From a candidate division FCPU426 bacterium (GTDB lineage Bacteria; Oederibacteriota; Muellerivitia; Muellerivitales; Muellerivitaceae), in assembly GCA_963771075.1 (NCBI GenBank), contig CAVYSE010000005.1:1-64000 (forward strand): DNA of 64,000 bases. Direction: 5' to 3'. A program made the translations under genes and the position numbers. Below the pieces are notes generated by a model. That model saw nothing but the letters and a program-made list of their open reading frames with translations, was not told the origin of the DNA and did not search any database. The first letter of the stretch is position 1, and each line of letters opens with the position of its first letter. This document shows, piece by piece, positions 6,788 through 50,191 of the stretch.

Positions 6788-7047
6788 GTCATGACGAGGA
6801 ATGCCCCGCGAATAGCGGGGCGGTTAGGGCGTGGTAATCCCGGTTTCAATAAGCCTTTATAGACAAAGGCTAAAGGCGAACTGAGATTGCCACGGTTCAT
6901 GCCGCTTTACAAATAAAGACAAAGGGTTAGCGGCATAGTCCTGATTTACGTTGCCCAATGGGCAACGTAGGACATAACGCCCCGACCCTTCGAAAGCCTC
7001 AGGGCCCTGAGCAAAGTCGAAGGGTTGGGGCTGAACCTCGCAATGAC
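6788..7047. repeat. Paired palindromic repeat (GTCATnnCGAG..CGTGGnAATC / GAGATTGCCACG..CTCGCAATGAC) with nested inserts
   Basis: Left unit 6788-6840 is approximately the reverse complement of right unit 6883-7047. The right unit contains a CCCTTCGA..CTCAGGG/CCCTGAG..TCGAAGGG palindrome (6986-7024). Confidence 0.7.
6899..6973 (+). repeat. ~75-bp two-hairpin element, copy A
   Basis: ATGCCGCT..AGCGGCAT-AGTCCTGATT-TACGTTGCCCA/TGGGCAACGTA-GGAC. Confidence 0.7.
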
Positions 7048-7148
7048 GGCAAAATCATTTACTTGGTAACTAAGACACTGCCGGGCGGCGGGAAGGATTC
7101 GATGGAACCGGATAGGAACTATGCACATGGCATAGCTGGCAAAATAAA

Positions 7149-7320
7149 CCCTCTCCCCCTGAGGGAGAGGGCTAGGTGAGGGGTGCTTAAGTGGTGGTAC
7201 CCCCTCATCCCTATCCCACATTTCTCTTTTGGGTATATAAAAAGGACATGTGGGATCATACCGACTTCTATAAATGCTAAATGGAAGGTCGGCATACCTT
7301 CTCCCTCGAGGGGAGAAGGT
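7149..7320. repeat. Pair of CCCTCTCCC-type palindromic repeats, the second interrupted
   Basis: CCCTCTCCCCCTGAGGGAGAGGGCTAGGTGAGGGG (7149-7183) and CCCCTCATCCCT[insert]ACCTTCTCCCTCGAGGGGAGAAGG. Confidence 0.75.
7213..7295 (-). repeat. Two-hairpin element, copy B
   Basis: Minus strand ATGCCGACCTTCCAT..GAAGTCGGTAT-GATCCCACAT..ATGTGGGAT. Confidence 0.65.
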
Positions 7321-7492
7321 GAAAATAACCCAACCCAACTTAGTTATGGTTGTGCTTCGTCAAAGCCATAGTTTCAAACCGGATTAAAGGGCCTGGAACG
7401 GTTGAATGGAGGCGATCCATCGACCATACTTGTTAATCAACATTTAGAATCACTACCAAAACCCAATATTTACCACAGAGACACGGAGACAC

Positions 7493-7567
7493 ATGCCGAC
7501 TATCCATGAGACATTAAATGGGGTCGGTATTGTCCCGATTTCTTTCGCCTTTTGGGCGAAAGGGGAC
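7493..7567 (+). repeat. Two-hairpin element, copy C
   Basis: ATGCCGAC..GTCGGTAT-TGTCCCGATT-TCTTTCGCC/GGCGAAAG-GGGAC, inside a CACAGAG repeat. Confidence 0.75.
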
Positions 7568-7630
7568 AGAGTAAATCTGGACAATAGGGTTAAGATTTCT
7601 TGAATGAAGAAAGGTTTTCTCTGTGACTCT

Positions 7631-7703
7631 GTCCCTTTGGCCCTAGGGGCCAAAGAGAACTGGACACTACCGACCCCCTTAGGGATTTATGGTAGGTCGG
7701 CAT
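7631..7703 (-). repeat. Two-hairpin element, copy D
   Basis: Minus strand ATGCCGACC..GGTCGGTAG-TGTCCAGTT-CTCTTTGGCCC/GGGCCAAAG-GGAC followed by AGAGTCACAGAG. Confidence 0.75.
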
Positions 7704-7774
7704 GTGGCCGCCAAAGGCGGCCTGTGGTGAATTTAGGTTTTGTTATAGTCTTTTAGATTCGAGACAGGTGACCC

Positions 7775-8872
7775 TTGAAAAAAACAGACCTCCATTGGAT
7801 GAAACGGGCCCTCGACCTGGCCCGTTTGGGCGGTCCGCTGGTCAATCCCAACCCCAAGGTGGGGGCTGTTCTGGTCCGCAACGGCCGCAAGGTCGGCGAG
7901 GGCGCCCACATGAAATTCGGCGGCCCCCACGCGGAGATCCACGCCCTGCGGCAAGCCGGGAAAAAAGCCAAGGGCGCGACCCTTTACGTGACGCTGGAGC
8001 CCTGCTCCCATCGCGGCAAGACCCCTCCTTGCGTGGAAGCACTGATCCAGGCCGGCATCCAACGGGTGGTGGCCGCCCACCTGGACCCTTTTCCCCTGGT
8101 GAAGGGCAAAGGTTTCGCCAAGCTCCATTCCGCCGGGATATCCGTCGAGGTGGGACTCTTGGCCAAGGAAGCGAAGGCCTTGAACGAGAATTTCCTCTTC
8201 AGCGTCACCCGGGGAAGGCCCAAGGTGATCCTGAAGGCCGCCCTGACCTTGGACGGCAAAATCGCCACCCGCACGGGCGCCTCAAAGTGGGTGACGGGGG
8301 AAAAATCCAGGTTGAAGGCCCATGAACTCCGCTCCCGGGCGGACGCCATCCTGGTCGGGATGGGAACGGTCCTGGCGGACGATCCGTCCCTCACGGTCCG
8401 TTTACCCGGTTACCGCCGGGAAGACGGTTGGCCCTTGCGGGTGGTCTTGGACGCCCATTTAAGCCTTTCGACGAAAGCCAGGGTGTTGGAGGGAAGCCCC
8501 CGAACCCTGGTCTTTACCTCCCGCCAGGCCTCAGCGAGCCGGCAAAGGGCCTTGGAAAGCCGGGGGGCGGTTGTTTTCCGGGTTCCCGGGGCTAAAAAAA
8601 TGTTATCTTTACGGGCTGTATTGAAAGAATTGCACCAGTTCGGGGTTCGAACCCTGTTGGTGGAGGGCGGGGGCTTGGTGCACGGCTCCTTTATAAGAGA
8701 ACATCTCGCGGATGAGGCGGTGCTGTGGATCGCCCCGAAAATTTTCGGGGAAGGGCCCGCCTGGGTCCGGGGAGTGGCTTACCTGAATCCCCAGCAGACG
8801 CCCCGGCTGAAGGGCGCGAGGTTGGAGCCCATGGGCGAGGACTTTGTCTTGACCGGCAATTGGGAGGAATGA
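7775..8872 (+). CDS. ribD: Riboflavin biosynthesis deaminase/reductase
   Basis: 'PNPKVGAV', 'HAE', 'TLEPCSH.GKTPPC', 'LVEGG'. Confidence 0.95.
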   Translation: MKKTDLHWMKRALDLARLGGPLVNPNPKVGAVLVRNGRKVGEGAHMKFGGPHAEIHALRQAGKKAKGATLYVTLEPCSHRGKTPPCVEALIQAGIQRVVAAHLDPFPLVKGKGFAKLHSAGISVEVGLLAKEAKALNENFLFSVTRGRPKVILKAALTLDGKIATRTGASKWVTGEKSRLKAHELRSRADAILVGMGTVLADDPSLTVRLPGYRREDGWPLRVVLDAHLSLSTKARVLEGSPRTLVFTSRQASASRQRALESRGAVVFRVPGAKKMLSLRAVLKELHQFGVRTLLVEGGGLVHGSFIREHLADEAVLWIAPKIFGEGPAWVRGVAYLNPQQTPRLKGARLEPMGEDFVLTGNWEE

Positions 8873-8873
8873 A

Positions 8874-9485
8874 ATGTTCACCGGATTGATCCAAGAGGTG
8901 GCTTCGGTGGAGAGCGCGAAACTGCGTGACGGCCTTATGCGCCTGACCCTGCGCGCGCCGCGAACCGCCGGAGGGGTGAAAATCGGGGATAGCGTGGCGG
9001 TCAACGGCTGCTGCCTGACGGCCGTGGAGGTCGCGAACCCGCTGGTGTCCTTTGAGGCGGTGCCCGAAACCTTGAACCGAACCGCCCTGGGGGGGCTGGC
9101 TTCCGGCCAGGTGGTCAACCTGGAGAGGCCCTTAAACTTGGGGGATGGCCTGGGGGGGCATTACGTGCAGGGCCACGTGGATGGAACCGCGGAGGTCATT
9201 TCCCTTGAGCCGGAAGGCGAAGGATGGCGCTTGCGGGCGCGGCTGCCCCATGCCCTTTCCCGGTACGTGGTGGAGAAGGGAAGCATCGCCCTGGACGGCA
9301 TCAGCCTCACGGTGGCGCTGATCGAGGGGGATGAGATGGAGGCCGCCCTGATACCGCACACCATGCAAAACACCAACTTGAGGGATAAAAAGCCCGGCGA
9401 CCGGATGCACGTCGAGGTGGATATGCTGGCCAAACACCTGGAAAAGCTGGCCGAAGGATACCTTTCTTATATGGGGAAAAAATGA
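8874..9485 (+). CDS. ribE: Riboflavin synthase
   Basis: 'MFTGLI', 'SVAVNGCCLT', 'GGHYVQGHVDG'. Confidence 0.95.
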   Translation: MFTGLIQEVASVESAKLRDGLMRLTLRAPRTAGGVKIGDSVAVNGCCLTAVEVANPLVSFEAVPETLNRTALGGLASGQVVNLERPLNLGDGLGGHYVQGHVDGTAEVISLEPEGEGWRLRARLPHALSRYVVEKGSIALDGISLTVALIEGDEMEAALIPHTMQNTNLRDKKPGDRMHVEVDMLAKHLEKLAEGYLSYMGKK

Positions 9486-9913
9486 AGATCGAACCGCTGG
9501 GGGAAGACGCCTCCCCGCAAACCGAGCCACTCCTGCCATCCCTGACCCCGCTCATCCAGGAAAGGGTCAAGAAGATCCAGGACCCCGTCCTGCGGGACCA
9601 ACTTTCCCGCCTGATCGGCGACGTGGAGGAAAAGGGCAAAAAACTTTTCAGCTCCAAGGCCCGGCAGGAATTCGAGGACTATAAAACCTCGGTCAAGCAT
9701 TTCATGCAAAAGGTCATCCAAGGCTCCTTTAAGCTCGAGGAAAAACAGAGCCGGAAACGCGACGGGAATTTCGTGGTTTACCTCACCACCCAAAAGGTGG
9801 ACGAGGCGTTGGACCATTTGGGACAGATGCTGTTGGCGGGCCAGCAGGATTCCATGCGGGTATTGGCCGCCCTGGACGAGATCCGCGGGATGTTGTTGGA
9901 CCTTTACCTGTAG
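9482..9913 (+). CDS. YaaR/DUF327-family protein
   Basis: 'YKTSVKHFM', C-terminal '[13 protein letters not shown]'. Confidence 0.75.
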
Positions 9914-9962
9914 CGCGAACCAAAACCTGGGGCGGCGGACCGCCCCGAACGGAAAAAGAGAA

Positions 9963-11175
9963 ATGAACCAAGTGGAAAAGGCGATCGAGGATATCCGGCA
10001 GGGCCGGATGGTGATCGTGGTGGATGACGAGCACCGCGAGAACGAGGGCGACCTGGTCATGGCCGCCGAGAAAGTGACCCCCGAGGCGATTAATTTCATG
10101 GTCCGGGAGGGCCGGGGACTGGTTTGCGTTCCCATGATGTCCGAGGACCTGGACCGGCTGGGCCTCCCCCTGATGGTCAACCAGCAGGAAGACCATTTCC
10201 GCACTGCCTTTACGGTCTCCGTGGACGCGCGCAAGGGGGTGACCACCGGCATCTCGGCCCAGGACCGGGCCAAGACCATCCAGGTCATGGCCCATCCCGT
10301 TTCCCAGCCCCGGGACCTGGCCAAACCCGGGCATGTCTTTCCCCTTCAATACCGGCTCGGGAGGGGTGCTGCGCCGCGCCGGGCATACGGAAGCCGTGGT
10401 GGATCTGGCCCGCCTGGCGGGCTTGCGGCCCATGGGGGTCATCTGCGAGATCATGAAGGACGACGGAAGCATGGCCCGCATGGATGATTTGAAAACCTTC
10501 AGCGAAAAACACGGGATGAACCTGATCACCATCGCGGACCTGATCCAATACCGCCGGGAAAAGGAAAAACTCGTGAAGCGGGTCCTGGAGCTGATGCTCC
10601 CCACCGAGTCCGGCGAGTGGAAGGTGATCGTGTACAAGGCCTCGACGGAGGATGACGACAGCCTGGCCTGGGTCAAGGGGGACCTGGCCGGCGGACCGGT
10701 GCTGGTGCGGGTCCACTCCGAATGCCTGACCGGGGACGTGTTCCATTCCCTCCGGTGCGATTGCGGGGCCCAACTCCACGCGGCCATGAACCGGATCGAC
10801 CAGGAGGGCCGGGGCGTCGTCCTATATATGAGGCAGGAGGGCCGGGGCATCGGTCTGCTCAATAAATTGAGGGCCTACCAACTGCAGGACCAGGGGTTGG
10901 ACACGGTCGAGGCGAACGAAAAGCTGGGCTTTCCCGCGGATTTGAGGGATTACGGGATAGGGGCCCAGATCCTGGTGGACCTGGGCGTGCGGGAAATCCG
11001 CCTCCTGACCAATAACCCGAAAAAAATCGTCGGGTTGGAAGGTTATGGATTAAAGGTGGTGGAGAGGGTGCCGATTGAAATCGATCCCAACCCAGTAAAT
11101 AAGAGGTATTTGGAGACGAAAAGGGAAAAAATGGGCCATTTGTTCTCGAAAAAAAAACAGGCAAAGAAAGATTGA
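9963..11175 (+). CDS. ribBA: Bifunctional DHBP synthase / GTP cyclohydrolase II (one +1 frameshift near 10355)
   Basis: '[11 protein letters not shown]', then a shift into '[12 protein letters not shown]', '[16 protein letters not shown]', 'QEGRGIGL'. Confidence 0.93.
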
Positions 11176-11184
11176 GGCATTAGA

Positions 11185-11655
11185 ATGGCGCCCGCTATGA
11201 TTCAAGGAAAACCCGAGGGGCGCGGCAAACGAATCGCGGTGGTGGTCAGCCGCTTCAACGACCTGATCGGCCGCAGGCTTTTGACGGGCGCGCTGGACAC
11301 GTTCAAGGAACGGGGCGTACCGGAGGAAAATATCGAGACCGCTTGGGTTCCCGGGGCCTGGGAGCTGGGCGTGGTGTGCGCCAAACTGGCCCGGACGGGA
11401 CGTTTCAACGGGGTGGTCGCCTTGGGCGCCATCATCCGGGGGGAAACGACCCACCACGAGGTTTTGGGGCGTCAAATCGCCGAGGACCTGGGGGCCTTGT
11501 CCCGGGAGACGGGGTTGCCGATCGCTTTCGGGGTCCTCACCACCGAAAATCTGGACCAGGCTTTGGCCCGGGCCGGGGAACAAAAGGATAACAAGGGGGC
11601 CGAGGCGGCCCTTCACCTGTTGGAGACCATGTCGGTGCTGGACCAAATTCGATAA
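11185..11655 (+). CDS. ribH: 6,7-dimethyl-8-ribityllumazine synthase
   Basis: 'VVSRFN', 'VPGAWE', 'IRGETTH', 'FGVLT', 'NKGAEAA'. Confidence 0.95.
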   Translation: MAPAMIQGKPEGRGKRIAVVVSRFNDLIGRRLLTGALDTFKERGVPEENIETAWVPGAWELGVVCAKLARTGRFNGVVALGAIIRGETTHHEVLGRQIAEDLGALSRETGLPIAFGVLTTENLDQALARAGEQKDNKGAEAALHLLETMSVLDQIR

Positions 11656-11739
11656 AGGCGGCTCACGGTTCCCAGTTGGCAGTTGGCGGCTTTCGTTGAA
11701 CCGCCCACCGCGAACGGGGGATAGCGAACTGAGGGTAAT

Positions 11740-12156
11740 ATGGGACTCAAACGCCGGACCCGGGAACTGGCCCTTCAAATGCTTTTCCAGATGGACCTGG
11801 GAACGGTCCAACTGAAAGATTTGGAAGAAAACTTCCTTCCCAACGCCAGCGCTCCCGAGGCGGCCAAGGAAATGTCCCTGGAACTGGTGAAAAACATCTG
11901 GGATCGGGTGTCGGAGATCGATTCCAACCTGCGGAAATTCACCCAACACTGGGATTTGAGCCGCATGGCGGGCGTGGACCGCAACGTCTTGAGGCTGGCG
12001 GCCTACGAGATTTTGTTTGACGCCGAAATCCCGAAATCCGTGGCCATCAACGAGGCGCTGGAAATCGTGAAGCGGTACAGTACCGAGGAGTCCAGCCGTT
12101 TCGTCAACGGCATCCTGGACAAACTGGACAAAAAAGAGGCAGGGGCCGGAACGTAA
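11740..12156 (+). CDS. nusB: Transcription antitermination factor
   Basis: 'RRTRELALQMLF', 'DRNVLRLA', 'INEALE', 'FVNGILD'. Confidence 0.95.
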   Translation: MGLKRRTRELALQMLFQMDLGTVQLKDLEENFLPNASAPEAAKEMSLELVKNIWDRVSEIDSNLRKFTQHWDLSRMAGVDRNVLRLAAYEILFDAEIPKSVAINEALEIVKRYSTEESSRFVNGILDKLDKKEAGAGT

Positions 12157-12248
12157 GTCCGGGCATGGGCCCGGGAAAGACCATCCCAAAAGGATGAGGG
12201 GAGACTGAATGACGATGAATCGGTTTAATTTGGAATCGGAAATATAAA

Positions 12249-12599
12249 ATGGAAATGGATTTTTCACCCGAGATCAAGGCGTTCCTCGACGAGGTGGTGG
12301 ATTCCTTCGCGATGTGGGATCTCCTGATCTTTTTCTCGAAAAAGTCGGAAGAGATGGAAACCCCGGACCGAATGGCCAAGATGTTGGGCCGTCAAACCCC
12401 TGAGCTGGAAAAACCCCTGGATAAACTGGAAAAAATGGGGCTCCTCACCCGGGTCAAACGGCTGGATGGGGAAACCGCCTGCCAATTGAACCGGGGCGGG
12501 GCCCTGTTTCCCAGCCTTGAGAAGTTTTGGTCTTTTAATGAAAGCCAGGAAAACCGGCTGAGAATCCTCAGCTACCTTCTGCGAAATAGGGCCCATTAA
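12249..12599 (+). CDS. Hypothetical winged-helix-like protein
   Basis: Coding-like ORF; HTH-like 'TPDRMAKMLGRQTPELEKPLDKLEKMGLL'. Confidence 0.55.
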   Translation: MEMDFSPEIKAFLDEVVDSFAMWDLLIFFSKKSEEMETPDRMAKMLGRQTPELEKPLDKLEKMGLLTRVKRLDGETACQLNRGGALFPSLEKFWSFNESQENRLRILSYLLRNRAH

Positions 12600-12685
12600 G
12601 GGGCTTGTCGGCCCATAACTCCATGGGTTTCCCCCTCCCGCCATGTTAAAATAACCCTCGTTTCCACCTCTCCGAATGGGGCCTC

Positions 12686-13419
12686 ATGCGATACGGCATT
12701 TTTTCCGACATCCACAGCAACCTGGAAGCCATGACCGAAGTGGCGAAGGCCATGAAGGCCGAAGGCGCGGGCGAGTACCTTTGCCTGGGGGATTTGGTGG
12801 GCTATTACGCCAACCCGAACGAGGTGGTGGAATTGATCGATGTCCCTCCGGTGTTGGAAGACTGGTCATGGGCAACCATGACTCGGCGGTGATAGGGCAA
12901 ACGGACCTCTCGAAATTCAACCCGCCCGCCGCGGAGGCGGTCCGATGGACCCAAAAGAGGCTGAAGCCCGGGAATATGCAATTGCTTCAAAACCTGCGGT
13001 TAAGGGAGGAAATCGGCGAGATCCAGTTGGTCCACTCGTCCCCTTTCCAAAGCGAGGAGTGGCATTACCTCAGCCAGCCGGATGATATCGAGCGGAATTT
13101 CCGGTACTTCCAGGGCGCGGTTTGTTTTTTCGGCCATGTCCATAAGCCCTTCATCGCCGAGCAATCCAAGGGGGGCGAGGTCAGGATGGTACCGGGCCAG
13201 GAGGTATCCCTTCAACCCGACTGCCGCTACCTGGTCAACGTGGGAAGCGTGGGCCAGCCGCGCGACGGCGATCCCCGGACCTGCTATGTTATCTACGATT
13301 CCCAAAGCCGCCAGCTTTCCATCCGGCGTATTCCCTATGATTTTGAGGCGACCTACCAGAAAACCATCGCGGGGGGGTTGCCGGAGTACCTGGCCCAGCG
13401 TTTGAGGTCGGGAAAGTAA
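12686..13419 (+). CDS. Calcineurin-like metallophosphoesterase (frameshift near 12850)
   Basis: 'SDIHSN', 'LGDLVGY' in one frame; 'GNHD', 'GHVHKP', 'NVGSVGQPRDGDPR' in another. Confidence 0.88.
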
Positions 13420-13464
13420 CAGCCTACCCGTTTTACGGAATCCTATTTCTTGAAGGAGATTGGC

Positions 13465-16514
<3,050 letters not shown>

Positions 16515-16558
16515 CCGTAACTGTTCAGATCAGGCAGACCCACGGCCAACACGAAGCC

Positions 16559-16592
16559 ACCCCATATGATTCACCCGTGAATCATATGGGGT
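16559..16592. repeat. Perfect 16-bp-stem palindrome (REP-like hairpin)
   Basis: ACCCCATATGATTCAC-CC-GTGAATCATATGGGGT. Confidence 0.8.
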
Positions 16593-16715
16593 AGTACCGC
16601 CATCGTTAAACCAATCAAATGGAGGGGCGGCACACAAAGAAAGACAAAAAAGCCTGGATTTCAGATTTTTTAAAACGACATCATTTTTTTCCGTATTTTC
16701 TTCCTTCCTGTCTTT

Positions 16716-16790
16716 GTCCCCCTTTGCTCCAAAGGAGCGAATGAAAAGGGACGATACCAACCTCTTTATTCCTTGCTACAAAGTTATTCA
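16716..16790 (-). repeat. Two-hairpin element, copy E (first hairpin degenerate)
   Basis: Minus strand AATAAAGAGGTTGGTATCGTCCCTTTTCATTCGCTCCTTTGGAGCAAAGGGGGAC closely resembles the copy at 50118. Confidence 0.65.
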
Positions 16791-16921
16791 CCGGTTTTTC
16801 CCATTGTGCCGTATTAACCACCCTTAACCACGTTCGTAACATGCCCGAAACCTGCGCCGTGGATATTCCTCCCGCTTGTATGTTCCGCATCATCATTCGA
16901 AACTTACGGGGAGGCTGAAAC

Positions 16922-18415: not shown

Positions 18416-18457
18416 GAAAAGGGGAGCCGGGCGGAACCGCGTATAAAATGAACATTG

Positions 18458-18495
18458 ATAAAAAAGGGTGGCGCAAAGGTGCCGCCCTTTTTTAT
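18458..18495. terminator. Bidirectional intrinsic terminator
   Basis: ATAAAAAAGGGTGGCGC-AAAG-GTGCCGCCCTTTTTTAT. Confidence 0.75.
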
Positions 18496-18521
18496 TACTC
18501 CAAGGATAGGAATTACCTAAT

Positions 18522-18887
18522 ATGGCCCGTCCCCTGAAATCACGAAAAAGGTCTTCCTCCCCAACTGCTCTAGGGTCGAATGGAAGCCTGAAAACGAGAT
18601 TGAACAACTTTATTTCCAACCTTGAACACTTGCCCTATGCGGCGACCCTGCTTCAAGAGAAAAAATTTGCGCGACGGGTGATGGGCGTGGGTGTGGTCAT
18701 TATGGCGGTGGGGGCGGCGATCTTTTCGGTGGGCTGGAAGCTGAAGGCCACTGGGTGGGTGGAGACGGCCTTTGTCATCACCTTGATCGGGTGGATGATG
18801 GTCATCTTGGGGTTCGCCTTCGGGGTTGTCGGTTGGGCCGCGAAGTATATTCCGATCCGCCCGGGCAAGTTCCGCCTAAAACTCTAA
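18522..18887 (+). CDS. Small two-TM membrane protein
   Basis: RBS AGGA; two hydrophobic segments. Confidence 0.55.
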   Translation: MARPLKSRKRSSSPTALGSNGSLKTRLNNFISNLEHLPYAATLLQEKKFARRVMGVGVVIMAVGAAIFSVGWKLKATGWVETAFVITLIGWMMVILGFAFGVVGWAAKYIPIRPGKFRLKL

Positions 18888-18946
18888 TTTCCTCTTGCCT
18901 CGGGCTTATAATCGGGAAAAATCCAACATGAGGTGGGAAAGATTTC

Positions 18947-19901: not shown

Positions 19902-19918
19902 CATCAAGGGAGTGAAAC

Positions 19919-36551: not shown

Positions 36552-36600
36552 GTCCCCCTTTTGCTTAAGGGACCAAAAAAATCGGGAATCGCCGAATTTT
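36552..36600 (-). repeat. Two-hairpin element, partial copy F
   Basis: Minus strand TTCGGCGATTCCCGATTTTTTTGGTCCCTTAAGCAAAAGGGGGAC-AGACAC. Confidence 0.5.
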
Positions 36601-37471: not shown

Positions 37472-37514
37472 GTTAGGACTATTCCGCCATTTTAAAAATG
37501 CTCGGGAGAACTCT

Positions 37515-38003
37515 ATGACGCCTTATCCAGTCAAACCCCAGAAGCGGGAAGAACATCCCCCCGCCGAGATGAACGCCTTGATGGAAGCCATGCGTTACGT
37601 ATTGGAAACCTGGTCCTACCTACCTTCCGGGCATATTGGACAGCCGGTGGAAGGGCCGGCCAAGCTGGGCATGGAAAGGTCCGTCCGAATTACCGGCCGG
37701 GCCAACGCTTTTCTCAACCTTCGCACCCTTCCCGAACTGGGTTCAATTCTTTACCAATATGCCCGCGGGGAAGAAGGAGGCCAGGAAGGGGCGGAGGACG
37801 CCTTTAACGAGTTCGTGAACATCTATTGCGGGCACCTGATGACCTATCTTTGGGGCAAAGACCGGGCCCAATTCAATCCCTACCTGCCTGTCCCAAGCAC
37901 CCCGAAGGACTGGCCCTCCGGGCCGCCTTCCGCGGCCTGTGTCTTTATTACGGAGGACATTCCACTGGAGGTCCGTTTGTGGATCGAACGGGAAACGGCT
38001 TGA
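37515..38003 (+). CDS. CheX/CheC-like phosphatase
   Basis: 'EDAFNEFVNIYCGHL' fits the D-x3-E-x2-N motif; first gene of the operon. Confidence 0.65.
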   Translation: MTPYPVKPQKREEHPPAEMNALMEAMRYVLETWSYLPSGHIGQPVEGPAKLGMERSVRITGRANAFLNLRTLPELGSILYQYARGEEGGQEGAEDAFNEFVNIYCGHLMTYLWGKDRAQFNPYLPVPSTPKDWPSGPPSAACVFITEDIPLEVRLWIERETA

Positions 38004-38004
38004 A

Positions 38005-40020: not shown

Positions 40021-40036
40021 AGGGGAGCGTTTAAAA

Positions 40037-40513
40037 ATGGAAAAGACGACGCCAATCATTCAGGGCCGGTACATCTTTTTCGCCATCGCGGGACAAGTCT
40101 ACGGCGTGGGAATACACCATGTCCGGGAGATCGTGGACTCGAAACTTTTGGAGGTGGTGGGGGACTCGTCCCTTTCGATCCGGGGTTATTTGGACCTGCG
40201 CGGAAGGAACATTCCGGTGGTGGATTTGAGGAACAAGTTGGGGATGGAAGATACCCCGATTCATCCTTGGAGCTCCGTTTTAACCATGGTGGCCAAGGGA
40301 TGGGACGGCCCCCTTTGGATGGGGCTGTTGGTGGATGGGGTGGAGCAAGTGGTTCAGGTCGCTTCCACGGACGTGGAGGCGGTTCCGGACATGGAGGAGG
40401 ACCCGAGAGGGCCGTGGCTGATGGGTTTCACCCGGCATCAAGACCGGACGGTTTTGCTGTTGGACCTGGATAAGGTGGCGAAAGAGGAAGTGGAATCGAT
40501 TCAACTCGCATAG
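40037..40513 (+). CDS. cheW: CheW adaptor
   Basis: 'VREIV', 'GYLDLRGRNIPVVDLR', 'GLLVDGV'. Confidence 0.9.
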   Translation: MEKTTPIIQGRYIFFAIAGQVYGVGIHHVREIVDSKLLEVVGDSSLSIRGYLDLRGRNIPVVDLRNKLGMEDTPIHPWSSVLTMVAKGWDGPLWMGLLVDGVEQVVQVASTDVEAVPDMEEDPRGPWLMGFTRHQDRTVLLLDLDKVAKEEVESIQLA

Positions 40514-40526
40514 GGAGGAATGAAAG

Positions 40527-42749: not shown

Positions 42750-42769
42750 GCGCGGGAAAGGAAAAAACC

Positions 42770-43336
42770 ATGAAAAAACGATCGATTGCTTTTCTCTCCC
42801 TTTCTCTGGGTTTGCTTTTCCTTGCCGCCGGCTCAGGGCCGGCGGCGGGGGAAGTGACCGAGTACGGGGTGAAAGCCGCCTATCTCTACAACTTCAGCCA
42901 GTTCGTGCGCTGGCCCGCGGCGGCTTTCTCCGCCGATGACTCCAATTTCGTGATCGGCGTAGTGGGGGAGGACCCCTTCGGCGCCACCTTGGACGCGGTG
43001 GTGAGCGGGAAAACCGTCGGTGGGCATCCCATGACAGTCAAACGCTTCGGGGCCTTCACCCCGGCCAAGGCGGGAGCCCTGGCGAAATGCCAGATCCTCT
43101 TCATCGCCTATTCGGAAAAAGACCAGGTCAGGGACATTTTGGCGGCCTTGGCGGGGAGCAAGGCGCTCACCGTTTCGGAGATCGAGAATTTTCCGGTCAA
43201 GGGCGGGGCCGTTCAATTTGACCAGGTCGGCCAAAAGATATCGCTGGTCTTGAATGAATCCGCGGCCAAAAAAGCGGGCCTTTCGGTCAGCGCCCAGCTC
43301 CTGCAGGTCGCCAAGCTGTTCAAATCGGAGGAGTAA
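42770..43336 (+). CDS. YfiR/DUF4154-family periplasmic regulator
   Basis: 'EYGVKAAYLYNFSQFVRWP', 'IGVVGEDPFG', 'CQILFI', 'SAQLLQVA'. Confidence 0.9.
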   Translation: MKKRSIAFLSLSLGLLFLAAGSGPAAGEVTEYGVKAAYLYNFSQFVRWPAAAFSADDSNFVIGVVGEDPFGATLDAVVSGKTVGGHPMTVKRFGAFTPAKAGALAKCQILFIAYSEKDQVRDILAALAGSKALTVSEIENFPVKGGAVQFDQVGQKISLVLNESAAKKAGLSVSAQLLQVAKLFKSEE

Positions 43337-43339
43337 ACC

Positions 43340-44872
43340 ATGCCGCGACTCAACTTCAAGAAAATGCCACTTCGGGACAAGATCATCTGGATCACGGGAA
43401 TTTCCACCACGATCTCCCTGATTTTAGCCTGCTTGGTCCTGGCCGTGAGCGAGAGGGTTTCTTATCCCAAGATTATGGCGGCGAACCTGTCCGACCTTGC
43501 CCAGGTGGTGGGGGATAACAGCACGGCGGCCCTGGCCTTCAACGATTCCAAGACCGCCCAAGGCATGCTGGATACCATGAAGGGGAACCCGCATATCGTC
43601 AACGCCACTCTTTTCGACGCCAAGGGACAGATTTTCGCGTCCTATAGTACGGATAAGAACCCCGCGGTGGTCACGGTCAAACCGGAAGGGTATGAGTTTT
43701 CGGGCGGGACCCTCAAACTTTTTCACGCCATCCAGATGGGCGGGTTGAATGAGGGAACCCTTTACCTTGAATCGGACCTGAAGGAAATGAATTCCCGCAT
43801 GGCGGCCTATTTGATGGTCACCCTGCTGGTTCTCATCCTTTCCATATTCGTCTCCTTCCTGACCTCCGCCCGCCTCCAGGCCCAGATCTCGGACCCCTTG
43901 AAAAACATCATCGGGAATTTGAACGACAGCGCCGAGCAGATGGCGTCCAGTTCGAATCAGATATCCACCGCCAGCCAGCAGCTGGCCGAGGGGGCGAGCG
44001 AATCCGCCAGCAGCCTGGAGGAAACCAGCTCTTCCCTGGAGGAAATGGCCTCCATGACCCGGCAAAACGCCGAGAACGCGCAAAGGGCGCGGGCCCTGAC
44101 CGAAGAGTCGCAGGAATCCGTCCTGAAGGGGAACCAATGCGTGGCGGAGACCCTGGCCGCCATGAAGGAGATGAATGAGAGCGCGGAAAAGGTCTCCAAG
44201 ATCCTCAAGACCATCGAGGAAATCGCCTTCCAGACCAATCTTTTGGCCTTGAACGCCGCGGTTGAGGCGGCCCGGGCCGGGGAACAGGGAAGGGGATTCG
44301 CGGTAGTGGCCGAGGAGGTTCGCAACCTGGCCCAACGCAGTTCGGCGGCCGCCAAGGACACGGCGGCTTTGATCGAGGAAAACGCCAAACGGGCCTCCCA
44401 AGGTTTGAAGGTCAGCGAAGAGGCCGGGAAGTCACTCGCCGAGATCGTGGACCGCTCCAAAAAAGTTTCCCACCTCATCCAGGAGATCGCCGGGGCCAGC
44501 GAGGAGCAATCCAAGGGCATATCGGAAGTGAACGGGGCCGTGACCCAGCTGGACACGATCACGCAACGCAACAGCGCCAACGCGGAGGAAATGTCCTCTT
44601 CCAGCGAAGAAATGTCGGCCCAGTCGAAGGTCCTGCGGGAAATGATCGGTTCCCTGGTGATGGTTCTGGAAGGCGACGGGAGGAAAAAAGAAGTTGTCTT
44701 GGCGCGGGATGAAACGATGGACCCGCGGGGGCAGGCGATCCATCACATCGCTCCCGGCAAGACAAAATCCGTCAAACGGTCCTTGTTGGTCCCCATCGGG
44801 GGGATGAAAACGGCCCAGGCCGCCGCCGGAAAGATCATCCCGCTCAGCGACGAAGAAATGCGTAATTTTTAA
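43340..44872 (+). CDS. Methyl-accepting chemotaxis protein with CHASE8 (YfiN-like) periplasmic domain
   Basis: Two TMs around '[11 protein letters not shown]...L......I..A.LFD..G..FASY'; hairpin '[34 protein letters not shown]'. Confidence 0.9.
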
Positions 44873-44882
44873 GGAGCCTGGG

Positions 44883-45410
44883 ATGGAAAAGAGCGAAACG
44901 AAATTCGAGGGCAAATACCTTACCTTCCGGGTGGGTAAGGAGGAATACGGGGTGCAGATCCTCAAGGTTCGGGAGATCGTAGGCCTTTTGGAAATCACCG
45001 AGGTACCCATGACCACCACCCATATCCGGGGCGTCATCAACCTGCGGGGCAAGATCATACCGGTGGCCGATATGCGCCACAAACTGGGGCTTCCCCCGGA
45101 GGTTTCGACCCGGGAGAACTGCATCGTGATCGTCCTGGCCAAAGGTGCCAAGGGAGAATCCCTGGTGGGTCTGCTGGTGGACTCGGTCAACGAGGTTTTC
45201 AACCTGGCCGAAGCCGCCCTGGAGCCGATTCCCCAGTTGGGGGACGGGCGGGCCCTGGACTTCGTGCAGGGGTTGGCCCGCGTCAAGGGCCGCTTGGTGA
45301 TCTTATTGGACGTGGATGAGGTGGTGAGCGCGGAAGAGCTGGATGGGTTGGATCTGTTGAAAAAAGCATCCCTGCCGAAAGACGGGGAAGCGGTGGCGGC
45401 CAAGGTTTAA
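44883..45410 (+). CDS. cheW: CheW adaptor
   Basis: 'YLTF..G.EEYG..I..VREI', 'GVINLRGKIIPV'. Confidence 0.93.
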   Translation: MEKSETKFEGKYLTFRVGKEEYGVQILKVREIVGLLEITEVPMTTTHIRGVINLRGKIIPVADMRHKLGLPPEVSTRENCIVIVLAKGAKGESLVGLLVDSVNEVFNLAEAALEPIPQLGDGRALDFVQGLARVKGRLVILLDVDEVVSAEELDGLDLLKKASLPKDGEAVAAKV

Positions 45411-45431
45411 GGGCAAAGCGGTCGGGGAGGC

Positions 45432-46280
45432 GTGCCGATGGTGGAAATTAAGATAACCGAAATGGGGATCGGGGAGTTTAACCAGCTTTCCCGCCTGGTT
45501 TACGCCCAAAGCGGTATCCACCTGGAGGAACATAAGCTGGAATTGCTCCAGGCCCGCTTGCGCAAAAGGCTCAGGATCCTTTCCCTCGGCTCCTTCAAGG
45601 AATACTACCGGCATGTGGTCAGCGACGAGTCGGGGGAGGAACTGAGGCACATGTTGGACCATGTCAGTACCCATAAGACCGAATTCTTCCGGGAAAACAA
45701 GCATTTCATCCTCCTGTCCCAACGCCTTCTGCCGGAACTGGTGGCGGAGACGGCCCGTCGGATGGATAAAACCCTTCGGATCTGGTGCGCGGCCTGCTCC
45801 TCGGGGGAGGAGGCCTACAGCCTGGCCATGTGCGCCCTTGAATCTGCGGCGGGCGCGGGGGTGAAGGTGAAGATCCTGGCCACCGACCTATCCAACCGGG
45901 TCATCCAAAGTGGCCAGGAAGGTTTGTATGGGCTGGAGAAGGTCCAGCCTATCCCGCCGGCCCTGCTTCAGAAATATTTCATTTCCCGCAAAAGGGACGG
46001 GGAAAAGTTTTATGAGGTCGGGGAAGGCCTGCGCCAGGCGGTCCATTTCCGCCGCTTCAACCTGAACGGGGGGGACTTTTCTTTCCGGAATACCTTTGAC
46101 GTTATTTTTTGCCGCAACGTGATGATTTACTTCGACCGCGAAACCCAGGAGGACCTGGTGAAGCGGCTATCGGGGGCGCTCCGGAAAGAGGGTTACCTCT
46201 TCACGGGTCTTTCGGAGAGCCTGTTGGCCATCCGGCATAAGCTGATTTCGGTCGCCTCGTCGGTATACCGGAAACCCTAG
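45432..46280 (+). CDS. cheR: Chemotaxis methyltransferase
   Basis: 'T.FFRE', 'IWCAACSSGEEAYS', 'IFCRNVMIYFD'. Confidence 0.95.
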   Translation: MPMVEIKITEMGIGEFNQLSRLVYAQSGIHLEEHKLELLQARLRKRLRILSLGSFKEYYRHVVSDESGEELRHMLDHVSTHKTEFFRENKHFILLSQRLLPELVAETARRMDKTLRIWCAACSSGEEAYSLAMCALESAAGAGVKVKILATDLSNRVIQSGQEGLYGLEKVQPIPPALLQKYFISRKRDGEKFYEVGEGLRQAVHFRRFNLNGGDFSFRNTFDVIFCRNVMIYFDRETQEDLVKRLSGALRKEGYLFTGLSESLLAIRHKLISVASSVYRKP

Positions 46281-46352
46281 CAGGCTGCGGTTGGAAAATT
46301 CGATGAATACAAGGCTCGCCGGTGATAAAACGCCCCGGGGGAGGAAAAGAAC

Positions 46353-46856
46353 TTGAACGCGGGAAAAACGGATAAAAAAAACATCGTGATAGGGGTGGGG
46401 GACTATTACGTCAGCTCGGACCCGTCCGATTTGCTCGTGACCTATGCCCTGGGTTCCTGCGTGGGAGTGACGGCCTATGACGCCAGGGCGCGCGTGGGGG
46501 GCATCCTGCATTTCAAGCTTCCCCACTCGCAGATCAATCCGGGAATGGCCTCGACCCATCCCGCCATGTTCGGGGACACGGGCCTGGAGGCCTTCCTGAT
46601 GGGGATGTTCCAGGCGGGGGCCACGAAGCCGAATTTGGACATCAAACTGGCGGGCGGCGCCAAGGGACTGGCCAGCGCCGGGGATTTTTTCAATATCGGG
46701 GAACGTAATCTTTTGATCGCCCAGCGCGTGTTTTGGATGAACGGCTTGATCGTTTCGCGCAAGGACACGGGCGGCAACGATTACCGGACGGTCAAGCTGG
46801 AAATGGCGACAGGCCGGGTCACGATCAAGGACCCTCACAACACTTACGAACTTTAA
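46353..46856 (+). CDS. cheD: Chemoreceptor glutamine deamidase
   Basis: 'LGSCVGV', 'GILHFKLP', 'KLAGGA', 'IGERN', 'DTGG'. Confidence 0.93.
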   Translation: MNAGKTDKKNIVIGVGDYYVSSDPSDLLVTYALGSCVGVTAYDARARVGGILHFKLPHSQINPGMASTHPAMFGDTGLEAFLMGMFQAGATKPNLDIKLAGGAKGLASAGDFFNIGERNLLIAQRVFWMNGLIVSRKDTGGNDYRTVKLEMATGRVTIKDPHNTYEL

Positions 46857-46873
46857 TTCAAGAGGAGGATGAC

Positions 46874-47269
46874 ATGGCGTTCAATTTTTTAGTGGTGGAT
46901 GACTCGGCCACCAGCCGGGGAATCATCAAGAAAACCCTGAAACTGACCCGGCTTCCCTTGGGGGATATTTGGGAAGCGGCCAACGGCCGCGAGGGGTTGG
47001 TGCAAATGCGCGCCAATTGGGTGGACCTGGTCCTGGCGGACTTGAACATGCCCGACATGACAGGGCAGGAAATGATCGCCGAGATGCAGAAGGACCCCCT
47101 CCTGGCCAAGCTTCAGGTGGTGGTGGTGAGTTCGGAGGGGAGCCAGTCGGTCCTGGAAGCCCTCTATCAACAGGGGGTACGCCAAGTGGTGCGGAAACCC
47201 TTTGAGGCCAGCCTGCTGAGGGACGTGATCGAAAAGGCGCTCGGGATACAGGCCGAAGCGAATGGATAA
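46874..47269 (+). CDS. cheY: CheY-like single-domain response regulator
   Basis: RBS GAGGAGG; 'LVVDDS', 'ADLNMPDMTG', 'KPF'. Confidence 0.85.
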   Translation: MAFNFLVVDDSATSRGIIKKTLKLTRLPLGDIWEAANGREGLVQMRANWVDLVLADLNMPDMTGQEMIAEMQKDPLLAKLQVVVVSSEGSQSVLEALYQQGVRQVVRKPFEASLLRDVIEKALGIQAEANG

Positions 47270-48341
47270 GAAGCGGGTGGAAAGCGGAGATATGGAAAAG
47301 GTCAAGGTGCTCATCGTGGACGACTCGACTCTGGTTCGTAAGGCCTTGACGGGCGTTTTCGAGGCGGAGGGTTTGCGGGTGGTGGGGGAGGCCTCGGACC
47401 CTTTTGAGGCCAGGGACCAGATCATCAGGCACCGTCCCGACATCCTGACCCTGGACCTGGAAATGCCCCGGATGGACGGCCTGACCTTCCTGGAGCGGCT
47501 CATGACCCACCAACCCATGCCGGTCGTGGTTTTTTCCAGCTTCACGGAGAAAAACAGCGCTTTGGCCCTGAAGGCCCTGGACCTGGGCGCCGTGGAGGTG
47601 CTGGAAAAACCCATGAAGGTGAATTTTGCCCCAGCCATGGTCAACTTGGTGAGGGTTTTAAAGGAAAGCGCCCATGCCAAACCCCGGCGGAGGGTTACCC
47701 CGGTGGCGCCGGAGGCGGTAAAAAAGATACCCGGGAATCCCAGCCGTTTAGTCACCGCGATTGGCGCTTCCACGGGCGGGACGGACGCGATTTCCACGAT
47801 CTTGCGGGGGCTGCCCGCCCAACATCCCGGACTGGTGATCGTGCAGCATATGCCCCCCTTCTTCACGCGGACCTTCGCCGAGCGGTTGGACCGGGAAAGC
47901 GCGATGCGGGTGAGGGAGGCGGTGGAAGGGGACGTCATCCGGGACGGACTGGCGCTGGTCGCGCCCGGGGGAAAGCATCTGTTGGTGGAAGGGTTACCCG
48001 GCCGGTTCCAAGTGTCCTGTCCTGATGGCCCGCCGGTGAACCATTGCCGGCCGAGCGTGGATGTGTTGTTTCAATCCGTGGCACGCGCAGCCGGGCGCCG
48101 CGCGGTGGGGGTGATCCTGACCGGTATGGGACAGGATGGGGCGAACGGGCTTATGGCGATGAAAAACAAGGGAGCCGTCACGCTCTCCCAGGACGAGGCC
48201 TCTTGCGTGGTGTTTGGAATGCCCAAAGAGGCGGTAGCCCGTGGGGCCGTGGACGAGGTGGTGTCGTTGAGGGATTTGGCCAATATCCTTAAATCGAAAG
48301 CCGAGGGTATTTTGGCGTACAGGGAAGGGAGCGAGTCATGA
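47262..48341 (+). CDS. cheB: Chemotaxis methylesterase
   Basis: REC domain; 'GASTGG', 'QHMP', 'RPSVD', 'LTGMG.DG'. Confidence 0.95.
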   Translation: MDKKRVESGDMEKVKVLIVDDSTLVRKALTGVFEAEGLRVVGEASDPFEARDQIIRHRPDILTLDLEMPRMDGLTFLERLMTHQPMPVVVFSSFTEKNSALALKALDLGAVEVLEKPMKVNFAPAMVNLVRVLKESAHAKPRRRVTPVAPEAVKKIPGNPSRLVTAIGASTGGTDAISTILRGLPAQHPGLVIVQHMPPFFTRTFAERLDRESAMRVREAVEGDVIRDGLALVAPGGKHLLVEGLPGRFQVSCPDGPPVNHCRPSVDVLFQSVARAAGRRAVGVILTGMGQDGANGLMAMKNKGAVTLSQDEASCVVFGMPKEAVARGAVDEVVSLRDLANILKSKAEGILAYREGSES

Positions 48342-49135
48342 CAAAAAACCAGAAAAAAACCATTCTGTTGGCGGACGCGAACGCCACGGCGCGCAAGCTT
48401 CTGGCAGTCCGGATCCAATACATGGAATACGCGACCGTCGAGGCGGGCGATGTGAAAGAGATGGACCAATTGATCTCCGACCAGGCCTTTGACCTGGCGA
48501 TCGTCGACTCAAAACTGGCCGGGCCGGAGGGCGACGCGATCCTTCAAAAGCTCCAATTCAAAAAAACCCCTGTTTTCTTGGTCACGGACCGGTTTCCCCA
48601 GGGAGGGGACGTGGAGGGACAGTTTCCCGTGAAGGCGGTGTTCCACCGCAGTCAGCGGACGGAAATGCTTGCCAAGGTGGAGGCGCATTTCAACGGGCTG
48701 GAAGAACAAAAGCCATCGCCCAAGCCAAAAGATATGCAGATCTTGCTGATCGAGGATTCTCCCACGATCCGGGGTTATCTCAAGCGCATTCTCGTGAAGC
48801 ACTTTCCGGGTTCGACGGTCCGCGAAGCGGAAGATGGAAGGCAGGCCATGACGGAAATGTCCAGCAAAAGGGTGGATATTATCGTCACGGATCTGCAGAT
48901 GCCGGGCATGGACGGCCAGACCTTCCTCAAGATCCTGCACCGGAATCCCATTTTGAAGAATAAGCCGGTGCTGGTCTTATCCGGGTCCTTCACCCCGCAG
49001 CTGCGGGAGGAACTGAAAGCCTATCCCACGGTCAAAACACTGGCCAAGCCATCTTCCGAGGAGGAGATCGCCTCCACCCTCAAGGATTTGATCGCCTTGA
49101 CGGATAACATGCCCCGCCTAGTCGCAGGGGAATAA
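48338..49135 (+). CDS. Tandem receiver-domain protein (first REC atypical)
   Basis: 'ILLADAN..AIVDSKL' then 'ILLIEDS..IVTDLQMPGMDG..KP'. Confidence 0.85.
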   Translation: MTKNQKKTILLADANATARKLLAVRIQYMEYATVEAGDVKEMDQLISDQAFDLAIVDSKLAGPEGDAILQKLQFKKTPVFLVTDRFPQGGDVEGQFPVKAVFHRSQRTEMLAKVEAHFNGLEEQKPSPKPKDMQILLIEDSPTIRGYLKRILVKHFPGSTVREAEDGRQAMTEMSSKRVDIIVTDLQMPGMDGQTFLKILHRNPILKNKPVLVLSGSFTPQLREELKAYPTVKTLAKPSSEEEIASTLKDLIALTDNMPRLVAGE

Positions 49136-49139
49136 AACC

Positions 49140-49490
49140 ATGGCACGAAACATGGACCCAATGAAGGCTTTTTACCTGGACCTGGAACAGGACCTGCATC
49201 TTCTCATTCTGCACTATTCCATGTGCGAGGGGGCTACCGACCCGGAAGTGACCGACTGGGCCCGATTTTTCGTCCGGTGGGCCGAGAAGGCGACCAAGCA
49301 CAGCGGACCCTGGAGCTGGAAATTACTGGAATCGGCGCAGAATATCGTGAAGGAGTTGGAAAAATCAAAAGACGGACGGAAGGGATATGATTCACTGGGT
49401 CAGGCGATGGCGCAGGCCTCCAACAAGTTGAACGCGGAGATCAAAACCTTCTTGTTGAAGGGAAATTCCCTCCTGGACATGATGAAATAG
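49140..49490 (+). CDS. Hypothetical helical protein, distant homologue of the CheA N-terminal extension
   Basis: 'QNIVKELE..LGQAMAQASNKLNAEI' vs CheA 'QMIVKGLE..LSQAMTEASQNLEMEI'; two conserved Trp. Confidence 0.75.
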   Translation: MARNMDPMKAFYLDLEQDLHLLILHYSMCEGATDPEVTDWARFFVRWAEKATKHSGPWSWKLLESAQNIVKELEKSKDGRKGYDSLGQAMAQASNKLNAEIKTFLLKGNSLLDMMK

Positions 49491-49495
49491 CCGGA

Positions 49496-49882
49496 TCAGG
49501 TTAAGTGGAAGAGCTTTTTTGCCTTGGGCACCGTCTCGCACATCAGACAGGGACCGCGGGAACATTGGGGACTGCGACCGCTCTCCAATAATTGAATCCG
49601 ATGATCCCATTGGTTGATCCGGTAAACATGGGGGCCACAGCTGATCAGCAGGTCTTCCGGGACGGCGAATTTGAGGAAATATTCGCTTTTGGAGAAGAGG
49701 TAGACGTTCCGGAAGGTCTGGGCCAGGTTCACCACGTTGCATTGGGTGGGGTCGATATCGATGAAATAGAAACTGCGCCCAAAGGGTTTGTCAGTGGGCA
49801 TCCAATAGGCAGGGGGGATTGGGTTCTTGCCCTTGGAAATGGTCTCGAAAACTCCTGCGGTGGCGTATTGAAACAAGTACAT
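49496..49882 (-). CDS. Hypothetical protein, possible HYD1-type ADP-ribosyltransferase fold
   Basis: RBS AAGGAG; 'LFQYAT', 'FGRSFYFIDIDP', 'EYFLKFAV', 'PHVYRI'. Confidence 0.45.
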   Translation of the reverse strand: MYLFQYATAGVFETISKGKNPIPPAYWMPTDKPFGRSFYFIDIDPTQCNVVNLAQTFRNVYLFSKSEYFLKFAVPEDLLISCGPHVYRINQWDHRIQLLESGRSPQCSRGPCLMCETVPKAKKLFHLT

Positions 49883-50117
49883 GGGAGACTCCTTCTGCTC
49901 CCCCGCAATTAAAATAACTTCAACCCGAAATTTGATTTATGATTTGCGTCAAGGCTTCATTTCGACAAAACAACCGTTCCGATTCAACCGTGGAGCCGTG
50001 AGGGGCCCTAATGGAACCATGATTCTCAAATGAGTGATTTCTTTATAAGCTTTATGGAAAGTCGGCATAGGAATCCCGTGTTTTTCGGTTATTTTTGGCT
50101 ATTAACTTGAGATTGCC

Positions 50118-50191
50118 TTGCCGACATTCAACAAATAAATAATGAGGTTGGTATAGTCCCGTTTTCTTTTGCCCTTTGGACCAAAGGGGAC
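50118..50191 (+). repeat. Two-hairpin element, copy G
   Basis: TTGCCGAC..GTTGGTAT-AGTCCCGTTT..CCAAAGGGGAC, between GAGATTGCC and AATGAC. Confidence 0.7.

Follow-up and report, generated by a model that had tools for sequence, protein, structure and literature searches.

A gene-less pair of hairpins in a candidate division FCPU426 bacterium: its junctions, its hosts and a possible way of moving

How does a small piece of DNA that carries no gene come to lie, repeatedly, inside the arms of other repeats? The question is raised by a stretch of 64,000 nucleotides from a candidate division FCPU426 bacterium (assembly GCA_963771075.1, contig CAVYSE010000005.1, positions 1 to 64,000; hereafter the window), in which we analyzed a repeated element made of two hairpins. 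The original prediction, made from this sequence alone, listed seven stretches and one fragment of the element. All were recovered: five are strong, scoring 59–83 bits under a covariance model trained partly on them, the stretch at 16716-16790 is degenerate, and the two partial pieces are marginal (Table 1). The analysis described below indicates that the element is real, mobile, precisely inserting and non-autonomous. In the labels used here, G000 is the source genome, other G numbers are genomes of relatives, and L numbers are loci.

Structure of the element and its junctions

The element consists of two gene-less hairpins joined by one base, and its length ranged from 71 to 97 bases among 181 curated distinct copies, 62 from the source genome and 119 from relatives. 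The curated set leaves out 21 of 96 matches that were not parsed, 11 of 75 rows that were mis-ended or truncated, duplicates, and a further 8 of 99 and 2 of 36 rows from relatives (inserts, truncations or position in an array). Hairpin 1, the arms of which have the consensus ATGCCGAC and GTCGGYAT and lie 20–23 bases apart in most copies, is followed by the joint, a single base in 180 of the 181 copies, and then by hairpin 2 (GTVCC...GGBAC), which varies in length. The arm motifs are conserved, GC content is 35–55%, and the sequence is nearly identical when read on either strand. Position 3 was G-T in hairpin 1 in 152/181 copies and A-C, that is, G-T on the opposite strand, in hairpin 2 in 80/181. 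When circularised, the element folded as a dumbbell in 150/181 copies, with both junction pairs closed and the joint base bulged opposite the closure.

The covariance model was trained on 29 copies from the source genome, five of these from the window. Covariation of the stems, claimed earlier from the window copies, was borne out: in the 29-sequence alignment, both partners had changed at 9 of 15 named pairs; the observed values were attained in 0 of 500 shuffles, in a test that relatedness of the copies can inflate. Paired cells amounted to 95% for the true structure versus at most 46% for slid structures, and RNAalifold, unaided, predicted the same two hairpins. Departures of the first arm from its consensus were compensated by the partner within the same hairpin in 124/134 cells and by the far end of the element in 30/134, which indicates that the hairpins, and not terminal repeats, are conserved. 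Chimeric copies were observed at G000:C25:2958-3039 and C1:177334-177399, where the hairpins of two neighbouring copies are fused; since the internal junction is where they are joined, each hairpin behaves as a module that can be shuffled. In G014, the internal junction of three copies holds an insert of a different kind, about 62 bases long, with CAG...CTG at its ends and what looks like a TA duplication.

The dinucleotide at the left junction was the same as that at the right junction in 174 of the 181 copies: CA in 165, CG in 5, TA in 3 and TG in one, TG being CA from the other strand. The element sits exactly between the C and the A in most copies, and the bases that flank the joint are the complement of the junction dinucleotide, T-n-G for CA. 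Copies with other dinucleotides followed this rule in 7/8 cases, with C-n-G in 5/5 CG copies and T-n-A in 2/3 TA copies. The covariance model included short flanks and was biased toward CA; in an independent metagenome set of 103 copies, retrieved with a pattern that placed no constraint on the base after the element, this base was A in 102. Upstream of the left end only the -1 base was fixed, with 18 different triplets at -3 to -1.

Unequal junctions were present in 7/181 copies. Two of these (CA/CC), like a CA/CG junction in one metagenome copy, are as expected if a target other than CA had been cut between its two bases; the rest look like later changes. Because some unequal junctions fit a cut between the two bases, a single dinucleotide kept at both ends describes the junction better than a duplication does. 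The 2-bp CA or TA duplication that had been suggested for window copies holds as to the same dinucleotide at both junctions and is doubtful as a true duplication. The same junctions bear on an ordinary MITE (a miniature transposable element with inverted repeats), which would have terminal inverted repeats of short length, duplicate 2 bases of its target and owe its movement to a DDE transposase, for example the IS30 of the window. Loosely inverted ends and a CA that can be read as duplicated would suit such an element, but the ends do not covary together, the three unequal junctions mentioned above fit a cut between bases, and the end of the window IS30 is unlike that of the element. Since the stems covary inside the hairpins and not between the ends, the element is not an inverted-repeat MITE; we regard this rival as largely refuted already and its remaining probability as minimal.

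We also compared the loops with their own targets. Complementarity did not exceed that of a permuted control (4.74 vs 4.70 ± 0.06), so no guide of the bridge-RNA type is indicated. This result is relevant to a rival in which a recombinase of the serine or IS110 type acts on double-stranded DNA at a 2-base core and CA lies at the centre of an inverted repeat formed by the circle junction. In keeping with such recombination are cores that match at the two junctions, tandem arrays, the symmetric junction and the one serine recombinase gene of the genome, at G000:C8:79966-80832. However, it needs neither the hairpins nor the covarying internal splint, the loops do not match their targets, and IS110 was present in 7/31 genomes and not found in G018, G043 and G003. 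Recombination of this kind is distinctly improbable, and IS110 was rejected as the mobiliser on the same distribution.

Copies, hosts and target sites

An iterated profile gave 96 non-overlapping matches in the source genome and 0 in the reversed genome, so the matches are not due to chance. A stricter profile gave 79, and overall the genome holds about 80–95 copies. Filled and empty sites, which the original prediction had proposed to collect, were abundant. The rejoined flanks were found elsewhere in the genome for 26/63 copies, compared with 0–3/63 if either end was moved by 1–4 bases; with 40-base flanks, an intact empty twin was found in the same genome for 29/64 copies, many at an identity of at least 95%. 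The cassette type at 7472-7728 was complete 19 times, in four states: 8 empty, 4 with the left arm filled, 3 with the right arm filled and 4 with both. The spacer between a phosphoglycerate mutase-family gene and ribD is about 1.1 kb here and a few hundred bases or less, without a copy, in 5/5 relatives. Head-to-tail arrays contained 8 and 7 copies in G014 and 4 in L050.

It had also been claimed that removal of window copies restores their hosts. This was confirmed for the first two host sequences by intact twins in the genome; the third has none in the genome and is uninterrupted in contigs of sequencing runs X2 and X4, where the uninterrupted host form of the copy at 6899..6973 is present. 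The host of the copy at 7213..7295 has its empty twin at G000:C21:71098. Five of seven window copies folded with z values of -3.6 to -6.8, the exceptions being those at 16716 (z -1.3) and 50118 (z -0.3). The copy at 16559..16633, which the original prediction had not listed, has a near-perfect first hairpin and the same A..T n G..C frame, and belongs to a sister subfamily with 6 copies in the genome.

Table 1. Positions of the element, its hosts and other features in the window, with two stretches in other loci that hold an insert
Feature	Position	Strand	Evidence or remark
Separate TIRtron element with Y1/HUH gene 1612-2565 and DnaA-type helix-turn-helix	1555..2569	+	inverted repeats GGGTCAGG...CCTGACCCC
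Gene-less host cassette	6788..7047		sequence; arms like those around GIY-YIG nuclease gene G000:C28:276302
Full copy in GIY-YIG-type cassette arm, CA at each junction	6899..6973	+	64 bits, z -6.75
Gene-less host cassette with DUF559-flanking arms	7148..7320		arm comparison
Full copy, TA at each junction, matching internal T-n-A	7213..7295	-	63 bits
Gene-less GxxExxY-type host cassette	7472..7728		arm type as around GxxExxY genes
Full copy, left arm of GxxExxY-type cassette	7493..7567	+	83 bits; 10 empty twins
Full copy, right arm of cassette 7472..7728	7631..7703	-	59 bits; 18 empty twins
Sister-subfamily copy, CA at each junction	16559..16633	+	E 9e-5, z -5.1
Degenerate copy, decayed first arm	16716..16790	-	29 bits, E 8e-6, z -1.3
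Remnant, second hairpin only	36552..36600	-	profile E 0.013, covariance model E 0.05; weak alone
Fragment, first arm and loop only	50036..50068	-	profile E 0.0025, covariance model E 0.3; weak alone
Full but ageing copy, GIY-YIG-type arm remnant	50118..50191	+	66 bits; place copy-free in 5 relatives
Insert of about 62 bases, CAG...CTG	L127:2930-3416		
Insert of about 62 bases, CAG...CTG	L143:17765-17911		

The hosts are the arms of small nuclease cassettes of the GxxExxY, DUF559 and GIY-YIG kinds. Arms of the DUF559 type were present on both sides of 14/14 DUF559 genes fetched, related heptamer arms were visible at 13 GxxExxY genes fetched, and arms of the GIY-YIG type flank a GIY-YIG gene in the source genome. 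By rough hand-made motifs, 108/181 copies lie within arms of nuclease cassettes. The earlier view of a structure-conserved, non-autonomous element enriched inside other repeats agrees with these data: of 37 distinct target contexts, 16 had another intact copy and 12 had at least three, compared with 15% and 5.5% of random intergenic CA sites. In the window, a broken GxxExxY gene with a frameshift and a stop was observed at 56530-57085 between ACCACAGAG-type arms, and gene-less cassettes of this kind at about 53475-53610.

Whether hairpins are targeted as local structure, as originally proposed, was examined with 114 reconstructed targets. These were not more structured than the control (-5.2 vs -5.9 kcal/mol) in 65-base windows, a size at which pairing from arm to arm is invisible, and the target C and A were both unpaired in 76/114 targets versus 281/391 other CA steps. 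Start codons and a tRNA copy are also hit, and the proposal was not upheld. The register within host arms is fixed, which suggests some target preference beyond CA. Targeting and survival are not fully separable in where copies sit.

Start codons are recurrent sites. The target was C|AT in 86/260 non-tandem copies, and the ATG regenerated on the opposite strand opened at least 100 codons in 24 of these 86, compared with 12 of the 174 others; such copies are likely to replace the native ribosome-binding region. At one orthologous start codon, of a gene that we take to be FtsE-like, the site carries the element in L092, L093 and L075 but is empty in G000, where another copy lies about 80 bases upstream. 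The copy at this gene was seen in L092, L093, L075, L219, L251, L279 and L284, of which L219 to L284 are metagenome loci. Across these several lineages the loops have diverged and the arms are kept, and the copy is possibly retained as the supplier of a ribosome-binding site. At L056:450-900, a copy splits a duplicated gene, named by eye as tRNA-Pro-like, between the D-stem and the D-loop; the intact tRNA copy adjoins the split duplicate, which also holds a second, different hairpin insert.

The covariance model detected the element in 28/30 other genomes of the family and in 0/68 other genomes of the phylum; a single genome of the family can contain up to about a hundred copies. The two family genomes without it are 97% and 85% complete. 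Matches of an exact-pattern scan came from uncultured bins, one labelled Candidatus Firestonebacteria. Plasmid and phage collections gave no match, and viral contigs gave a single exact pattern match inside an open reading frame (ORF) of a GC-rich contig, which was taken as chance. Near-identical copies with near-identical flanks were observed in different genera, in L138 and at G000:C3:393859-396206; from their sequences, this pair suggests transfer on a larger mobile region.

Possible mechanism and candidate enzymes

Our tentatively preferred reading, to which we give slightly less than an even chance, is a splinted single-strand cut-and-join, with T-n-G as the splint and probably an HUH-type enzyme acting in trans. 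Exposed single-stranded DNA would fold, so that the two C|A junctions come to lie on the T-n-G splint. With each end cut once, between C and A, the flanks would rejoin cleanly and heal the donor site, and the freed element would close on itself as a dumbbell circle in which a single base bulges out opposite the join. A new C|A would then receive the circle, whereas a circle with a C-n-G or T-n-A splint would go into C|G or T|A. Copies would survive where they are harmless, in the arms of other selfish cassettes or at start codons where the end of the element restores ATG, and much of the recent copy number would be spread within, or riding on, one cassette family. An HUH-type enzyme is favoured because the closest tested precedent is the RAYT (REP-associated tyrosine transposase) TnpA-REP of Marinomonas. 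That enzyme is described as cutting at CA and CT, chosen by pairing with a GTAG guide, with CA selected by guide T2 and G4 and the site shifting predictably when the guide is mutated (PMC8266576).

Several observations weigh against this reading. The non-CA copies are few and related, representing about three CG lineages and two or three TA lineages, and one TA copy retains T-n-G. The element is without a GTAG foot, and repair can make palindromes perfect even when folding is not selected for. Y1 genes were detected in 22/31 genomes; they were not found in the carriers G023, G006 and G021 (98–99% complete, 13–40 matches) and were present in G010 and G019, which have no element matches. No mobilising enzyme emerged from the survey of Y1, IS110 and Xer-like genes in the family genomes or from the neighbours of copies, where inspection by eye of the 45 largest clusters of ORFs adjoining 390 copies, with no Pfam scan, gave no recurring mobility gene. 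Since draft genomes lose repeated genes, such absences do not prove that an enzyme gene is lacking. In contigs of the sequencing runs, the only form of these data covered, no circle and no excision at the same locus was seen, and no RNA run was listed among those containing the element. Among copy pairs with at least 90% identity, 75% in G000 and 100% in G014 had the same target type, compared with 2% and 7% of pairs below 70% identity. On these figures, recent free jumping to unrelated sites is rare.

The near-identical copies were also alike in their distant flanks (23–27/44 vs 11–12). Since such pairs share both target type and distant flanks, recent growth has occurred largely within one host family. 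These data fit an account in which rare old insertions were followed by passive spread, the element riding on host cassettes, with gene conversion between arms and palindrome repair keeping the stems. Variants that track the target type, the chimeras of hairpins from neighbouring copies and the two copies with the same flanks in two genera are in its favour. However, passive spread does not readily produce 114 distinct target contexts, including unique start codons and a tRNA copy beside its empty twin, nor one variant in both arms of a cassette, and it leaves the splint rule unexplained. As a full account it is unlikely, and it probably adds to active insertion rather than replacing it.

With regard to an enzyme for the splinted cut-and-join, the HUH gene at 1612..2565, which had been named as a candidate mobiliser, was rejected: its family carries inverted repeats of its own, is not clearly close to copies of the element and does not track it across genomes. 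In the source genome the family amounts to about 30 genes and fragments. Clusters of the element lay within 2 kb of these genes in 1/82 cases (expected 2.7, p 0.94), within 6 kb in 9/82 (expected 6.9, p 0.25) and within 10 kb in 16/82 (expected 9.8, p 0.03, uncorrected among 18 tests). For uncollapsed copies the values were 13/96 versus 6% within 6 kb and 23/96 versus 9% within 10 kb. To us this proximity signal is most probably a weak effect of shared islands, with a small chance of a real link left. Every Y1 gene of the source genome has TIRtron or IS200 ends, and none is flanked by the element.

A longer parent of the element, such as the copy enclosing an ORF that it had been suggested to look for, was likewise not seen. 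Among 235 internal junctions the left arm was missing at 6 and the right arm at 4, and none of these resembled the end of a larger element within the 100–120 bases inspected, a span short of partners at kilobase distance.

The TIRtron at 1555..2569 was not shown to be part of the dumbbell-element system; it matches the RAYT subclass 2.1 or TIRYT type. Both these proteins and the GGGGWSAS motif have been described (PMC3733652, PMC6006769). In the window at 1062-3014, this TIRtron lies between a sigma-factor gene without its end and a fragment of an M48 peptidase gene, with an IS30 at 1-975; because the truncated gene and the fragment flank it, a rearrangement has probably occurred at the TIRtron. 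Elsewhere, IS110 was seen inserted inside a TIRtron inverted repeat in the three copies inspected (G000:C3:100034-101500 and others).

A tyrosine recombinase, most likely the single Xer-like enzyme of the family, might instead exchange one strand of the folded element, as integron integrase does with attC. In the stretch G000:C6:114166-115235 (L097), a single Xer-like recombinase gene, its protein encoded at 114198-115235, has a symmetric palindrome with a 6-base spacer just upstream. The gene is single-copy and the sole recombinase found in nearly all carriers, and non-carriers have it too. It was attractive at first because of this palindrome, but it now ranks as a rival. The palindrome was present in 24/28 loci by a palindrome test and in 2 more by motif, with outer arms that vary between genomes, and is probably a dif site. 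Support comes from the rich carriers G043 and G045, where no tyrosine recombinase other than the Xer-like gene was found, from its presence in 29/30 family genomes and in G025, and from TCGGTATA, which the palindrome and the element share in G000; in addition, the bulge opposite the join could block a second exchange. On the other hand, the arms of the site vary by genome (TCGG, CTTC, TTCA and TAG types) and the arms of the element do not follow them, the enzyme is also present in G010, G019 and G025, all without the element, and the join lies at the centre of symmetry rather than at the edge of the 6-base spacer. We consider this rival distinctly unlikely. Among the 8 tyrosine recombinases of the genome, three of them judged by tandem layout only, no integron integrase was found; four phage-type integrases adjoin tRNA genes.

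The genome also contains 12 group II intron reverse transcriptase genes, and this abundant enzyme could in principle reverse-transcribe a two-hairpin transcript for insertion at nicks. Tolerated G-T pairs are compatible with an RNA intermediate, and a circular RNA could yield arrays. However, the wobble pattern is symmetric between strands, orientation relative to genes is unbiased (28 vs 38), copies are not near reverse transcriptase genes, and there is no Rfam match: the scan that had been recommended gave 0 hits in the window and 13 matches in 14 loci, all below the gathering threshold of the family. The same lack of an Rfam match and of an orientation bias counts against the small RNA considered in the original prediction, and movement through RNA is very unlikely. 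As a separate observation, group II introns and IS110 are inserted at a 28-base palindrome that separates the units of a gene-cassette array at G000:C5:77600-98300; the genome holds 98 such sites.

Beyond the splinted cut-and-join itself, a wider proposition can be made, which we hold to be rather unlikely: that the element is a minimal self-splinting DNA dumbbell, in which about 75 bases hold both the stems that bind the enzyme and an internal three-base guide that sets the target dinucleotide, moved by a conserved host strand-transfer enzyme rather than by a linked transposase and representing one of a widespread, unrecognised gene-less class.

Comparison with known systems

In the literature found, no description of this element family appeared; most subscription papers and the repeat catalogues in supplements, which lay outside the search, could bear on its novelty. 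The element is apparently undescribed, a mobile hairpin DNA of the non-autonomous kind whose targeting rule can be tested directly. Its hundreds of natural copies with exact empty sites turn the question of how repetitive extragenic palindromic (REP)-like repeats, palindrome-associated transposable elements (PATEs) and double-hairpin elements (DHEs) insert into one for an oligonucleotide assay. If the rule is true, the element would be among the smallest substrates for scarless, base-pair-programmed insertion and would point to a strand-transfer enzyme. It is a parasite of parasites, at home in the arms of nuclease cassettes of three kinds.

Integron attC sites are similar to the element in being a folded single-strand substrate with conserved unpaired bases and minimal crossover homology. 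The element differs from them in having no R or L boxes and no cassette gene, and no integron integrase was found among the tyrosine recombinases of the genome. From IS110 systems with a bridge RNA it differs in lacking complementarity between loop and target. The GGGGWSAS inverted repeats of TIRtrons are not those of the element, in which the motif occurs at the right junction in 15/181 copies, partly from host bases. MITEs are likewise small, non-autonomous and multi-copy, with filled and empty sites (PMC3184786); in the element, however, the terminal repeats lack covariation and the internal hairpins covary, and a target duplication of the MITE type is doubtful.

Mitochondrial DHEs, as described, are also two adjacent hairpins, potentially mobile and with no known enzyme, but they belong to fungal mitochondria and have a GC content above 75%, in contrast to this bacterial element (PMC10085805). 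PATEs of the IS200/IS605 family share two hairpins, the absence of a gene, presumed single-strand movement in trans and precise removal; their target is given as a fixed tetra- or pentanucleotide 5' of the left end, whereas that of the element is a dinucleotide (PMC7290912). The three IS200-type copies of the source genome have end hairpins unrelated to the element, and among them no parent insertion sequence was found.

The closest resemblance in habit is to REPs and their paired form, REPINs, with their RAYTs: these are likewise hairpin repeats that are short and gene-less, lie between genes, are restricted to a lineage, have a similar size, form tandem clusters and nest (PMC3116915, PMC8266576, PMC6006769). 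In that system the cut falls between C and T or C and A under a DNA guide at the hairpin foot (PMC8266576), and the covariation in the element would fit a guide-chosen single-strand cleavage of this sort. However, position tables of 63 copies contained no GTAG or CGTC foot, and no RAYT gene flanked by repeats of the element was found. A REPIN is described as one long hairpin of two REPs, whereas the element is two back-to-back hairpins with one base between them, and its proposed guide, unlike that of a REP, is internal and would pair with both of its own ends. The element works like a REPIN or a PATE while lacking the features that define them; its shape is that of a DHE, but its composition is not. 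What is new here is a junction dinucleotide common to both ends together with its complement inside the element.

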